DNA from: Rubripirellula sp.
GTDB taxonomy: Bacteria; Planctomycetota; Planctomycetia; Pirellulales; Pirellulaceae
Assembly: GCA_965216875.1 (NCBI GenBank)
Contig: OZ244207.1
Coordinates: 3,776,001 to 3,840,000, forward strand
DNA: 64,000 nt
Reading direction: 5' to 3'
In this document: one piece after another, positions 17,559 to 29,526 of the stretch
How positions within the stretch are numbered: the stretch's first letter is position 1
Layout: each line of letters opens with the position of its first letter
Position numbers and translations under genes: made by a program
The notes under the pieces: generated by a model
Seen by the model: only the letters and a program-made list of their open reading frames with translations
Databases searched by the model: none
Told to the model about the DNA's origin: nothing

Positions 17559-17885
17559 TCATTCCAGCGCTCGATCGAGAGCCTCGGCATAACGTTGCTG
17601 CTGCTGGTGTCCGAGCAGCGTTTCAACAACGATGCCGTTTCGAAAGATAAGGACGGTTGGCAGCCGTTGAACTCCATAGCGGTCGGCCAACTCGCGGTGC
17701 TGGTCAACATCTACCTTGGCAACGGTGGCTACCGATTCATATTGCTCGGCAAGTGAGTCGATGACTTGGCCAAGCAATCGGCAGGGCGGACACCATGGCG
17801 CCCAAAAATCGACCAGCACCGGGCGATCCGAATCGATCACCTGCTGCCGAAACGTGGCGTCGGTCAAATCAATCGTTTTGGCCAT
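17559..17885 (-). CDS. trxA: Thioredoxin
   Basis: VLVDFWAPWCPPC active site, LPT cis-Pro motif, 108 aa, GGGAG RBS. Confidence 0.92.
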   Translation of the reverse strand: MAKTIDLTDATFRQQVIDSDRPVLVDFWAPWCPPCRLLGQVIDSLAEQYESVATVAKVDVDQHRELADRYGVQRLPTVLIFRNGIVVETLLGHQQQQRYAEALDRALE

Positions 17886-22049: not shown

Positions 22050-23618
22050 ATGGCAACGGCCACCGACCCAAATTGGGATGTCGATGACGCGATTCCCGCC
22101 GAACCTGCCGAGGAAGAAAACAACGAACCCGATGCCGATCCCTATCGTCGGTTTCTGTTTTTCCAAGCGACGCCCGCTTGGCTCGTCAGCACGATGGTTC
22201 ATGTATTGATCTTCCTGGTCCTCGGATTGGTCACGATTGCTGACCCGGTCAAGATCGTGAATGTGCTGACCGCCAACAACACAGGCGAAGAAGGTCCAGA
22301 GATTGAAGAGTTCACCATCGACGAAATCGATCCTGGTGAAGTCAGCGAGATGGAAGAGGTCGCTGAGCCGGTCGACGTTTCCGAGCCAGTCGAAATGATC
22401 GAGCCGACTGCGATGGAGCCGATGGAAATCGCAACGGTCGATTTCGAGATGTCGGACCTCGCCGCCGACATGGCACCGACCGCATCGATGCTGCAATCAC
22501 TCTCATCCCTTTCCGCTGCTCCGCTAAGTAGTCGCAGCGCCGACATGAAGAAAAAGTTGCTGCGTGACTACGGCGGCAACGAAAGCAGTGAAGCGGCCGT
22601 CACCAAAGCTTTGAAGTGGTTGTCGCGTCACCAAATGCCGAACGGGGCTTGGACCTACGCGCACAACGTCGTCTGTCGCAACAACTGTGGCGATCCAGGT
22701 GAACCGAACCGTGCCAAGGCAGTCAACGCAGCAACCGCGATGGCGCTGCTTCCGTTCATGGGAGCAGGACAAACGCACATTCAGGGCGAGTACCGCGAGG
22801 TCGTCTTTCGTGGTCTTCGGTTCCTGATTCAAAACGGAAAAGCCGGCAAGAAGAACGGCTTGCCGGTTCTCGACCTCTCGGAAGGTCCGGGCAACATGTA
22901 TTCGCACGGACTCGCAGCCATCGCGCTGTGCGAAGCCTATGCGATGACCGAAGACCCGGAACTGGCCGGACCAGCGCAAGCTGCCCTGAACTTCATTGTC
23001 TACGCCCAGTGCCGCGATGGCGGTTGGCGTTACCGTCCACAACAACCCGATGGCGGCGACACGTCGGTGACCGGTTGGCAAGTGATGGCGCTCAAGAGCG
23101 GTTACATGGGGCACCTGGCCGTTCCGCCACAAACCATTCAAGGATCCATGCTGTTCCTTGATAAAGTGCAATCGAACAACGGTTCACGCTACGGCTACAC
23201 CAAACCTGACACGAGGGTCCGCCAAGCCTGCACTGCGATCGGCTTGCTCTGTCGCATGTACACCGGTTGGGACAAAGATCACCCCGGGATCAAGGCAGGT
23301 GTCAAAGAACTGGCCAAGATTGGTGTCATGAAGAATGACATCTACTACGACTATTACGCGGCCCAGGTGTTACGACATCACGGCGGAGCCGAATGGGACA
23401 AATTCAACATCGAGCTGCGTGATTGGCTCGTTTCGACCCAATCCACCGAAGGTGGTGCTCGCGGCAGCTGGCACTTTCCCAACAGCAGTTCTCATCGAGG
23501 CCCCAAAGAGGGCGGGCGTTTAGCAAGCACGTCGTTCGCGACGATGATTTTGGAAGTTTACTACCGCCATATGCCGTTGTACGCTGATGCGGCAGCCGAA
23601 GAGGATTTCCCGCTGTAG
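22050..23618 (+). CDS. Prenyltransferase/squalene-oxidase-repeat protein with N-terminal TM helix and acidic linker
   Basis: ALKWLSRHQ..GAW, MYSHGLAAIALCEAY, DGGWRY, DTSVTGWQVMALKS, ILEVYYR. Confidence 0.85.
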   Translation: MATATDPNWDVDDAIPAEPAEEENNEPDADPYRRFLFFQATPAWLVSTMVHVLIFLVLGLVTIADPVKIVNVLTANNTGEEGPEIEEFTIDEIDPGEVSEMEEVAEPVDVSEPVEMIEPTAMEPMEIATVDFEMSDLAADMAPTASMLQSLSSLSAAPLSSRSADMKKKLLRDYGGNESSEAAVTKALKWLSRHQMPNGAWTYAHNVVCRNNCGDPGEPNRAKAVNAATAMALLPFMGAGQTHIQGEYREVVFRGLRFLIQNGKAGKKNGLPVLDLSEGPGNMYSHGLAAIALCEAYAMTEDPELAGPAQAALNFIVYAQCRDGGWRYRPQQPDGGDTSVTGWQVMALKSGYMGHLAVPPQTIQGSMLFLDKVQSNNGSRYGYTKPDTRVRQACTAIGLLCRMYTGWDKDHPGIKAGVKELAKIGVMKNDIYYDYYAAQVLRHHGGAEWDKFNIELRDWLVSTQSTEGGARGSWHFPNSSSHRGPKEGGRLASTSFATMILEVYYRHMPLYADAAAEEDFPL

Positions 23619-23647: not shown

Positions 23648-24832
23648 ATGATTCGAGTGGTTTGCAGTCTCTCGTTGATGTTCGTGTCGACGATTGCGTT
23701 TGCCCAATTCAAACTTCCGACGGTCGATGAAGCTCTGAAGATCTCGGCCGAAACGGGTAAACCGATTTTCGCGATGGCGGGCCAAGAAACGTGACCGCCT
23801 TGCGTTGCGTTGCTCAAACGGCTCGAAACCGATCGGTCGTTGGCACGCTTTGCGGGACAGTTCGTTCCGCTCAAAATTGTCACAAGCAACAATCCGGACT
23901 GGGCCAAGTGGTCCCGAAAGTACCCGGTCGACGGTAACGGCATCCCTCGACTTTACGTCGTTCGCGCTGATGGCGAAAAACTTTTCGGCGCCGTCGGCTC
24001 ACTTCCCGGTGACAAGCTTCCTCAGATGATGACGGCCGCATTACAAATGTCGGGTCGGCAATTCAACGAAGTCGAAGCAACGGCACTCAAGTCAGCGGGC
24101 GAAAAAGCCAAATCGGAACTGAGCAACAACAATCCCCTTGCCGCCGCACACGCGCTGGCATCCATTTCCAGCCTCGGTGCCCCAGATGAACTGGGCAGCT
24201 TCGCTCGCACCGCGGTCCTTGCCGGGGAAGCGTTCGAAGAATTGCAGAAGCAACTTGAATCGCAAGTCGACGATGCCCAATCGAAACTGTCAGCCAGTGG
24301 TGATCAAGAAACGCTCACCGCACTGGTCAAGATCGCGGAAGCCGAAAACGCCTATTCGCTCTTTCCCAAGCTTCGCAAATCGGCAGGTGGGCTCACACGA
24401 GAGATCAAGAAAGAGAAACCATTGGCAGATCTCTACACTCAAGCGAGTGGCTTGGTCAAAGCCCGCGCGTTGGTTTATTCGCCCAAACGAAACGTCAAAC
24501 TACGTGCGAGTTCGGCCTTTGCCTCGTTGATTCGGCGCTACCCCGGAACAGAAGTTGAAACGCTCGCACGCAAAGACCTTGAAGAGATTGATCCTGATGC
24601 GGCGATCCTCAGCGCCGACACGCCGTCGATGACCGTATCGCCAAACGCATCGAAACCGACCACGTTCCGCACCTGGACTTCCAAGTCGGGGACGTTCGAA
24701 ACCGAAGCGATGTACTTGCAACAGAAATCGGGCAAGGTTCAACTGCAGTTACGCAACGGCCGCAAAATCGTGGCATCGATCGATCAGCTCAGCGAATCCG
24801 ATCAGGCCTACCTCCGAACTCGCATCCAATGA
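23648..24832 (+). CDS. Secreted thioredoxin-like protein with in-frame UGA (UPPC motif) and C-terminal SHD1 domain; putative selenoprotein
   Basis: ATG 23648 gives signal peptide + DEALKISAETGKPIFAMAGQET; TGA at 23792-23794; then PPC, in frame with the 23810..24832 ORF; C-terminal RTWTSKSG..LSESDQAY. Confidence 0.75.
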
Positions 24833-28155: not shown

Positions 28156-29526
28156 ATGAACTCCAACCATTTCAAAGCATCTTCCGTTTGTGGGAACGCT
28201 CTGATGCCAACACTCACTCGCTCGTTCGTGCACTGCGTGCTGTTCGTCGCCGCGTGCTTGGCGACTTGCGTCCCTTGCTTTTCGTCCGAGCCGTTTCGAT
28301 ATGACGACACGGGCGACAAGCTTCCGCGGCCGCGTTTTCACAACATCCAAACGGGATTGCCAGGAGGCATCGAGCGTGATGCGTTGCTTTGGGGTATCGA
28401 TCCGACCGGCACATCAAAGTGGAACCTCGGCTGGTTTGTTTACGGGGCCCAGGATTCGCGTAGCATCGCCATCGGATTCAAAGCGGGCACACCCAGCCAG
28501 CTTTATGTTGACTTGAATCGCGACAAAACCTTTCAAGCCGATGAACGGATCAACGCCGATGATCCTGGCGTCGAAAGTTGGCAAACCAAGATCGATGCCG
28601 AATTCGTTACCGAGTCGGGTGACTTTGAAACGGCAACCCGTTCGATTCGCATTCGACGTTTGGGGGACGAGGCGATCCAAATCGCAACAACCGGCGTGAT
28701 GCGAGGCCAAGTCGAGATTGGTGGCACCTCGATCGCCGCAATCCGGATGGATCGTGACAGCAACGGTCGCTGGTTCGACGCTGCCGATCGCATCGTGTTG
28801 GACCTCAATGGTGACGGCAAAGTCGATTCGATCGGCGGCCGTGTCGCCTGTGAATCAATCACGCGGCTGTTCGGAAAACGCTATGTGCTCAAGAGTGATC
28901 AAGTAGGAACGAGTATCGAATTCGACGAACTCGTTGGGACCGGATCGATCGCTCCTCACCTTCCGCTGAAACCGTCCGTCGAGCTGAGCAAATTCAACGC
29001 TTCGCTTGTTTCGCGTGGTGGAGTTCGCGTTGCACTCGAAGGGCTCGAGCCACGAGACGAATGCCCTGTTGGCCATTATCGAATTGAGTCGCTTTCGTTT
29101 GAGGTCACCGAAGCGGATGAGCAATACGAGTTCTTTTTCTACGGGTCGAACCAGTCGAAGTACCCGTTTGAAGTTTCCGATGCCGGTTCGACCAAAGTCG
29201 ACCTGCTGGGCGAATTGAAACTCGGCGGCGGCCAAACGGTGATCCCGCGTCCGGACGGGGCGATGATCACGATCAACCCATCGCTGACCACCACCAGCGG
29301 TCTCTACATGACCGACTGCAAAGCCGAACAACGAGAAAACCGATTGCTCGTTCGAGCGAGACATGGCGACCACGTTTTCGCGACCGCGTCTTCGGGATTC
29401 TCGTGAGGCAGTCTCTGTCCGGTCTCGGTCCGAGTCCCCCAATCTATTGAACCCCTTCACGTCACGTCGTTGCTTCTCTTTGACGGCGGTCCTCTCGCTG
29501 GCCTCTTGCAAAAGGTTGTTCCCTAG
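28156..29526 (+). CDS. Secreted hypothetical protein with in-frame UGA (SGFS-U-GSLC); putative selenoprotein (otherwise ends at 29406)
   Basis: TGA at 29404-29406 is followed by 39 open codons to TAG 29524-29526, 5 nt before the next ATG; SECIS-like hairpin just downstream; D-x-N-x-D Ca-binding-like motifs. Confidence 0.7.
29421..29437 (+). promoter_or_regulatory. Candidate bacterial SECIS hairpin
   Basis: GGUCUCGGUCCGAGUCC starts 15 nt after the UGA; apical loop contains GU; architecture resembles the E. coli fdhF SECIS. Confidence 0.55.

Follow-up and report, generated by a model that had tools for sequence, protein, structure and literature searches.

A gene divided by an in-frame TGA codon

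The window, a 64,000-nucleotide stretch of Rubripirellula sp. contig OZ244207.1, carries on its forward strand a single frame of 394 codons that contains one internal TGA and is closed by a second TGA at 24830–24832 (Table 1). We found in place each of the elements that a first-pass annotation of the sequence had listed here: the ATG at 23648, the internal TGA followed by CCG CCT TGC, and the continuation of the same frame into the 340-aa ORF at 23810..24832. The TGA occupies the first position of a thioredoxin CxxC motif. That annotation had also foreseen that standard gene calling would split the gene, and public collections indeed store it as two proteins of 48 and 340 aa. Among 92 database homologues, some of them titled 'SHD1 domain-containing protein', coverage was at most 86% of the query for most, and most records begin 3′ of the UGA; CxxC was present in 9/9 of the database homologues fetched for having a thioredoxin domain. 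Named close relatives are Rubripirellula, Rhodopirellula and other Pirellulaceae bins.

The TGA was unchanged in contigs from all three sequencing runs that cover the site (run X6 has no coverage there). Runs X1 and X2 may be the source sample, and X5 comes from another study and represents a relative with 99% identity. The X5 contig keeps the TGA despite 12 other differences; an A to G difference at 23857 (+63; positions with a plus sign count bases 3′ of the UGA) replaces an A-U pair in the distal hairpin described below by G-U.

No sigma-70-like promoter was found for the gene, and terminator-like sites occurred only at chance level. Twenty-nine bases upstream ends a gene (22050–23618, + strand) for a 522-aa membrane-anchored protein with a squalene-hopene cyclase C-terminal-like domain; this neighbour recurs in one other locus, and the linkage is not conserved. 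Among 80 loci (flanks of 1.5–4 kb) we found no conserved operon, the largest neighbour cluster covering seven. Elsewhere in the window, the thioredoxin with CPPC that had been reported near 17.8 kb appears as WCPPC in the ORF at 17559–17885, and a 416-aa ORF at 28156–29406 (+ strand) ends in TGA after S-G-F-S and has no Pfam match.

Table 1. Coordinates of the predicted selenoprotein gene, its elements and further candidate sites (window positions unless marked G000:C1)
Feature	Position	Strand	Description
Whole gene	23648..24832	+	Predicted exported Trx7–helical–SHD1 selenoprotein, one in-frame TGA
Predicted signal peptide, aa 1–19	23648..23704	+	Hydrophobic core, A-F-A cleavage site; read from the sequence
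Thioredoxin-fold domain, ~aa 20–136	23705..24055	+	UPPC; invariant Pro of GIP (aa 100)
In-frame TGA	23792..23794	+	Predicted selenocysteine codon, U49 of U-P-P-C
Spacer hairpin	23807..23848 (+13 to +54)	+	Predicted loop-out of the ~42 bases that separate UGA from SECIS
Weak hairpin of the first-pass annotation	23808..23820 (+14 to +26)	+	Overlaps the 5′ arm of the spacer hairpin
SECIS-like hairpin	23852..23870 (+58 to +76)	+	7-bp stem; AGUUC loop 23859–23863, loop start +65; codes A-G-Q-F-V-P
All-helical middle region, ~aa 141–322	24068..24613	+	AlphaFold model; TPR-like end in some homologues
SHD1 domain, aa 335–390	24650..24817	+	PF03983, E 3.2e-12; after flexible linker; optional within the family
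Further TGA candidates, G000:C1	333089, 332624, 353597, 1685310, 1772173, 5006761	+	
Further TGA candidates, G000:C1	1259663, 1386418, 3179718, 3658658, 4039386, 4481819, 4983994, 5002400, 6090558, 8114242	-	

Domain organization of the read-through protein

The product had been described in advance as a thioredoxin-fold/SHD1 protein, and profile searches bear this out: the read-through protein matches Thioredoxin_7 (PF13899) over aa 25–106, across the TGA (E 1.7e-8; 34.9 bits, cut-off 27), and SHD1 near its C terminus. Besides the CxxC-type motif, which precedes helix 2, a Pro stands at the cis-Pro position in 66/66 sequences, and G, C/U and P are invariant in the aligned family members. The N terminus has a hydropathy peak of 2.27, and the N termini of homologues are similar.

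An AlphaFold model, built on a 66-row alignment with the TGA read as Cys, has a mean pLDDT of 94.7; it shows the thioredoxin domain and a helical bundle, then SHD1 behind a flexible linker. The modelled thioredoxin domain superposes on AGR3, 2lst, 3f9u and DsbH with Z of 12.6–13.0 (rmsd ~2.4), and the modelled SHD1 on 2hbp with Z of 10.0 (rmsd 1.1, 57 aligned). Thioredoxin_7 is matched by 64 of 66 members, SHD1 by 37 and TPR_6 by nine, the last two counts indicating that the tail is exchangeable. YbgF/CpoB-like matches occur in 13/66, and PDZ is absent from the 12 Pfam families that these members match.

The model points to periplasmic disulfide reduction or isomerization as the likely role of the protein. 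A selenolate would attack substrate disulfides in the periplasm and Cys52 would resolve, with the helical and SHD1 domains binding client proteins.

The UGA/cysteine column among homologues

Four sources supplied the homologues: a set of 61 relatives; 401 genomes of the order, of which 50 gave a match; metagenomes, where 80 of 89 loci were retained and the search pattern avoids the UGA and the hairpins; and genome contigs, which contributed 22 loci through six search patterns, one of which covers hairpin codons. One locus did not align across the site, and removal of identical sites gave 132 distinct ones. The first-pass annotation had proposed such an alignment as a check on its reading of the UGA as selenocysteine (Sec), a residue such as Trp counting against it; the column holds TGA in 103 sites, Cys in 24, other residues in 5 and Trp in none. 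The UGA is therefore aligned with Cys in homologues, and coding is conserved on both sides of it. In every TGA site for which 84 bases or more are available downstream (102/102), the second Cys of UxxC is present, as it is in 18 of the 24 Cys forms. Conservation to this extent exceeds chance. The TGA is kept down to ~25–30% protein identity and in several families of this order.

In a quick tree built from 69 rows (L151 was omitted as too short), nine Sec/Cys changes are needed, of which strongly supported branches force only two; since so few are forced, the counts of TGA and Cys forms are not counts of independent events and, the homologues being related, Fisher P values overstate the contrast between them. 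One Cys form, L055, is nested among TGA forms (support 98–99) and keeps Q-F-V-P with a broken stem. Its genome, G190, is 99% complete; selA is matched more weakly there and selB not at all, which suggests that Sec use was lost recently and that the distal hairpin decayed with it.

Two further groups stand apart in the alignment. Five loci (L149, L150, L152, L171 and L176) have Ala, Ser or Asp at the site and no second Cys, and are probably redox-inactive members. Another five (L173–L175, L178 and L181, from genomes of family f15) make up a Cys clade on a long branch, in which the motif is C-x-x-x and the resolving Cys is missing; searches of their genomes gave neither selA nor selB.

Selenocysteine machinery and other candidates in the genome

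Searching the genome for Sec genes, as the earlier reading had recommended, returned a selB-selA-selD cluster (C1:325–331 kb) and a tRNA-Sec with anticodon UCA (C1:7784436–7784530), so that selA, selB, selC and selD are all present. SelB is ~640 aa long with no visible extension, and the TIGR00475 model is matched end to end; a SelB of longer reach, considered as an explanation for the distance of the hairpin described below, was set aside on this length and profile match. A selA match is present in 31/31 genomes that carry the TGA form (one match partial, at a contig edge and under the cut-off) and a selB match in 29/31, the two misses being 78% and 79% complete; G026, which has both TGA and Cys forms, is counted with these. 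Genomes with the Cys form only have a selB match in just 7/20; the presence of selB in those seven means that Cys is not only a result of machinery loss.

The proposal that the UGA is recoded as Sec thus gains from the machinery, from the Sec/Cys pairs and from the company that the TGA form keeps with selA and selB. Nothing that had been named as counting against it was found: the column is free of Trp, and the TGA is present in the contigs of relatives. The apparent stop codon very likely stands for Sec in a redox enzyme predicted to be exported; the gene is almost certainly a real selenoprotein gene of an uncatalogued family.

We also scanned 68,432 in-frame TGA contexts of the genome, from which 16 other candidates were hand-picked (Table 1). 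In all of them a G-U loop that starts between +18 and +28 caps a hairpin, although four of the 16 were picked for the hairpin and for those four this is circular. The commonest loop among them is a 5-nt R-G-U-Y-N. Eleven of the 15 scanned candidates match recognizable families, namely FwdB, SelW/Rdx, ArsC, two AhpC/Prx, deiodinase-like, DUF3179, CMD/YciW, HMA, rhodanese and FG-GAP. Candidates of this kind thus number at least 16 beyond the window gene (G000:C1; L218–L231), and several of them have no selenoprotein family model (an FG-GAP protein, a GGGGUGGGSC protein, a 1100-aa protein and a mini-ORF before FwdB).

ARAGORN further reported two large tRNA gene arrays, at G000:C1 591000–594748 (14 tRNAs, including a tRNA-Ile with anticodon UAU) and 628016–632638 (31 tRNAs), and a tRNA with anticodon CUA ('Pyl') at G000:C1 3282034–3282109 (- strand), possibly an amber suppressor or else a degenerate tRNA.

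A conserved hairpin far downstream of the UGA

The likely SECIS, missed by the first-pass annotation, lies at +58 to +76. This distal hairpin has a predicted energy of -11.1 kcal/mol (2/200 shuffles were equally stable) and is the sole helix that RNAalifold finds. With at least three pairs it occurs in 96/102 TGA homologues but in only 3/24 Cys homologues; with at least five pairs, after dereplication at 80%, the counts are 38/50 and 1/20, respectively. Its columns are 90.9% paired in TGA forms, with double-sided changes at six of seven pairs, and the covariation exceeds 500/500 shuffles and every slid control. In contrast, the same columns are at chance in 19 Cys forms, with 43.7% paired and a covariation that 392/500 shuffles reach.

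The encoded amino acids covary in ways that preserve the stem (G-Q-F-V-P, A-Q-F-V-P, G-W-F-I-P and T-Q-F-V-S). An A at +63, a third codon position that pairs with U+71, is found in 46/50 TGA forms versus 2/20 Cys forms; GGA and GCA each make up ~19% of their own codon family in the genome. The loop reads R-G-U-W-Y in 100/102 TGA forms, and of the genome's 1.69 million same-phase coding positions, 78 carry a comparable loop with a stem of at least five pairs. The AGUUC loop of the window gene matches the loops of the genome's canonical elements. A search of the TGA forms for a hairpin with a 5-nt R-G-U loop at +14 to +39 gave 0/102.

When set against the bacterial SECIS (bSECIS) consensus in the Fig. 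2 legend of PMC13188914 (16–37 nt from UGA to apical loop, upper stem of 4–16 bp, threshold of -7.5 kcal/mol), the distal hairpin agrees in its loop, its seven pairs and its energy and departs from it in spacing, with a loop that starts at +65, also far outside the +18 to +28 seen in the 16 hand-picked candidates. On these patterns of conservation and covariation, we hold with considerable confidence that the distal hairpin would be the SECIS directing recoding.

The strict form of the hairpin is absent from 6/102 TGA forms, and L179 has no such loop altogether. L179 (G158:C443) is a divergent TGA member on a long branch with a predicted hairpin whose loop, CGUGA, lies at +18; this may represent a switch to a SECIS at the canonical position.

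A spacer predicted to fold between the UGA and the distal hairpin

The bases between the UGA and the distal hairpin are themselves predicted to fold in the window gene: the spacer hairpin has an energy of -17.9 kcal/mol, and 13/1000 synonymous recodings fold equally well. Relative to synonymous recodings, bases +10 to +57 have a mean z of -2.89 in TGA forms and -0.22 in Cys forms, and z falls below -1 in 98% of 50 TGA forms versus 20% of 20 Cys forms. This contrast is absent from six other 48-nt windows of the same genes. The fold of 23780–23860 alone is unremarkable (z -0.05) because that stretch cuts the distal hairpin.

The register of the spacer varies among homologues, and RNAalifold predicts no spacer helix. 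A consensus register derived from the same sequences is only 64% paired, with a weaker signal of 49.8% paired in Cys forms (8/500 shuffles). The spacer's own loop is not conserved, a G-G/G-U pattern occurring in 5/50, which argues against the spacer as a SelB site.

Counting each outer helix as two bases, a crude measure, we obtained an effective position for the distal loop with a median of 23 and a range of 19–30 in TGA forms (50/50), and of +25 in the window gene. An effective position of +23 falls inside the canonical loop range of the genome, although the measure does not separate the two groups by range, since 20/20 Cys forms also lie within 16–38 (median 28.5). A genome scan for further genes with a far hairpin and a folded spacer returned only the window gene; the scan required a redox motif and a coding score and so may miss genes.

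It is likely that the UGA of the gene is read as Sec under the direction of the conserved hairpin at +65, the spacer bringing it within the reach of SelB. The mechanism would then probably be a loop-out. Once the UGA occupies the A site, the stretch from +13 to +54 would fold at the mRNA entry, and the folded spacer would place the G-U loop at an effective +23 to +25. A SelB of ordinary length would bind this loop and deliver Sec-tRNA, after which the ribosome would unwind both hairpins. If this is true, the codons just after UxxC are freed from RNA constraints. If the loop-out works, SECIS searches should permit a folded spacer, and engineered bacterial selenoproteins could place the SECIS away from active-site codons. 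With ~100 TGA and 24 Cys alleles, the gene family is a testable model that comes with a natural control.

Alternative readings

Sec could also be inserted at the UGA by another RNA element. The spacer hairpin itself might be the SelB-binding SECIS, or only a pausing element, with the distal hairpin as an accessory. Its apical loop at ~+28 to +33 lies inside the 16–37 nt of the consensus legend in PMC13188914, and it folds strongly in nearly all TGA forms. The near-invariant loop that matches the genome's canonical loops is, however, that of the distal hairpin, and we regard this reading as unlikely. The first-pass annotation had noted a small hairpin at +14 to +26 as an uncertain SECIS. The hairpin does exist, and could serve as a transient SECIS while the ribosome opens the spacer: it sits at the canonical position, its loop (GCUCA at +18) has G first, and 73% of its cells are paired in 50 TGA forms, above slid controls. 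It did not hold up as a SECIS. It has no G-U loop and only -2.7 kcal/mol against the threshold of -7.5 in the Fig. 2 legend of PMC13188914; 67/500 shuffles equal its covariation, and the pair +16/+24 is broken in 28/50. This makes it a very improbable alternative to the distal hairpin.

The remaining readings dispense with Sec. A suppressor or near-cognate tRNA might read the UGA as Cys or Trp without selenium, and the Cys homologues (24/132) imply that Cys would be tolerated. On the other side, the sole tRNA with a UCA anticodon reported by ARAGORN is tRNA-Sec, TGA acts as an ordinary stop at the gene's own end, Trp is missing from the column and selA accompanies the TGA form in 31/31 genomes; we give this reading hardly any weight. 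Least probable of all is a pseudogene or a real split into a 48-aa peptide and a 340-aa cytoplasmic SHD1 protein, although both pieces are in public collections and most homologue records begin after the UGA. The break falls exactly at the catalytic Cys column, it persists in remote homologues from several families, and selection on the hairpins is confined to TGA forms. A UGA read as Sec, with the distal hairpin as its SECIS, is thus the reading that we retain. It entails an annotation correction, in that planctomycete 'SHD1 domain-containing protein' records are C-terminal pieces of predicted exported redox enzymes.

Comparison with known systems

The thioredoxin domain of the window protein superposes on DsbH/AGR/ERp19-type thioredoxins (2ju5, 3ph9, 2lst and 3fk8) with Z of 12–13. 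The top Foldseek matches were the Trx-TPR proteins YbbN/CnoX (3qdn and 3qou, E 3e-5), in which a thioredoxin domain is likewise followed by a helical region. The whole-chain match is poor (TM 0.27, rmsd 13.9, 17% identity; by superposition, Z 11.5, rmsd 10.6, 175 aligned), and a profile search of PDB sequences returned no YbbN entry. YbbN/CnoX is a cytoplasmic holdase that hands its clients over to GroEL/DnaK and is not known to contain Sec. Unlike it, the window protein has a predicted signal peptide and SHD1.

Several thioredoxin-fold families with UxxC are predicted in Table 1 of PMC13188914: thioredoxin (PF00085), thiol:disulfide interchange protein (PF13098), thiol-disulfide isomerase-like (cd02966) and Trx7/PDZ (NF041199). 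The window protein resembles the thioredoxin-fold selenoproteins described there in having Sec at the position of a catalytic Cys and Cys-containing homologues. A signal peptide, Trx7 and helical bundle with an optional SHD1/TPR tail is not among the 119 families listed there. NF041199 has a PDZ domain and is listed with CxxU, whereas the window protein has UxxC and no PDZ; the highest NCBIfam score of the latter, 11.6 bits, falls below the cut-off of 300 (NF041199), so that no NCBIfam selenoprotein model fits. Closer in lineage are two planctomycete thiol-disulfide isomerase-like thioredoxin selenoprotein candidates for which bSECISearch gave no SECIS (PMC4807772, S9 Table, organism P1). As described there, they too are thioredoxin-fold genes split in two by annotation and have Cys homologues. 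The openly available literature that we searched yielded no description of a bacterial SECIS that acts from afar by looping out, nor of this family, which could still figure in the BSepDB family table or in subscription papers; the main texts of PMC13326102 and PMC12013277 do not mention planctomycetes or SHD1.

Like the canonical SECIS/SelB system of the E. coli fdhF type, the window gene has a coding-region hairpin 3′ of the UGA with a stem within 4–16 bp, a small loop with G-U near its start and an energy beyond -7.5 kcal/mol; its genome likewise has the full selA/B/C/D set. In E. coli the upper stem lies 11 nt from the UGA (PMC8659212). The window gene differs from this arrangement in that its loop is at +65 with a separate 42-nt hairpin in between, and its conserved element does not sit atop a stem that starts next to the UGA. 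Canonical SECIS elements are given for only 87.4% of the bacterial selenoprotein entries of BSepDB, the rest being uncharacterized (PMC13326102, main text), and bSECISearch missed at least 13% of the known genes in a test set (PMC12013277, main text). Somewhat more tentatively than for the gene itself, we propose that this uncatalogued exported planctomycete family represents a second bacterial SECIS architecture, in which a sequence-free adaptor hairpin loops out ~42 bases and a standard SelB-binding hairpin works from +65, and which may well account for part of the ~13% of genes without a canonical SECIS. The family is a concrete model for one class of such genes.
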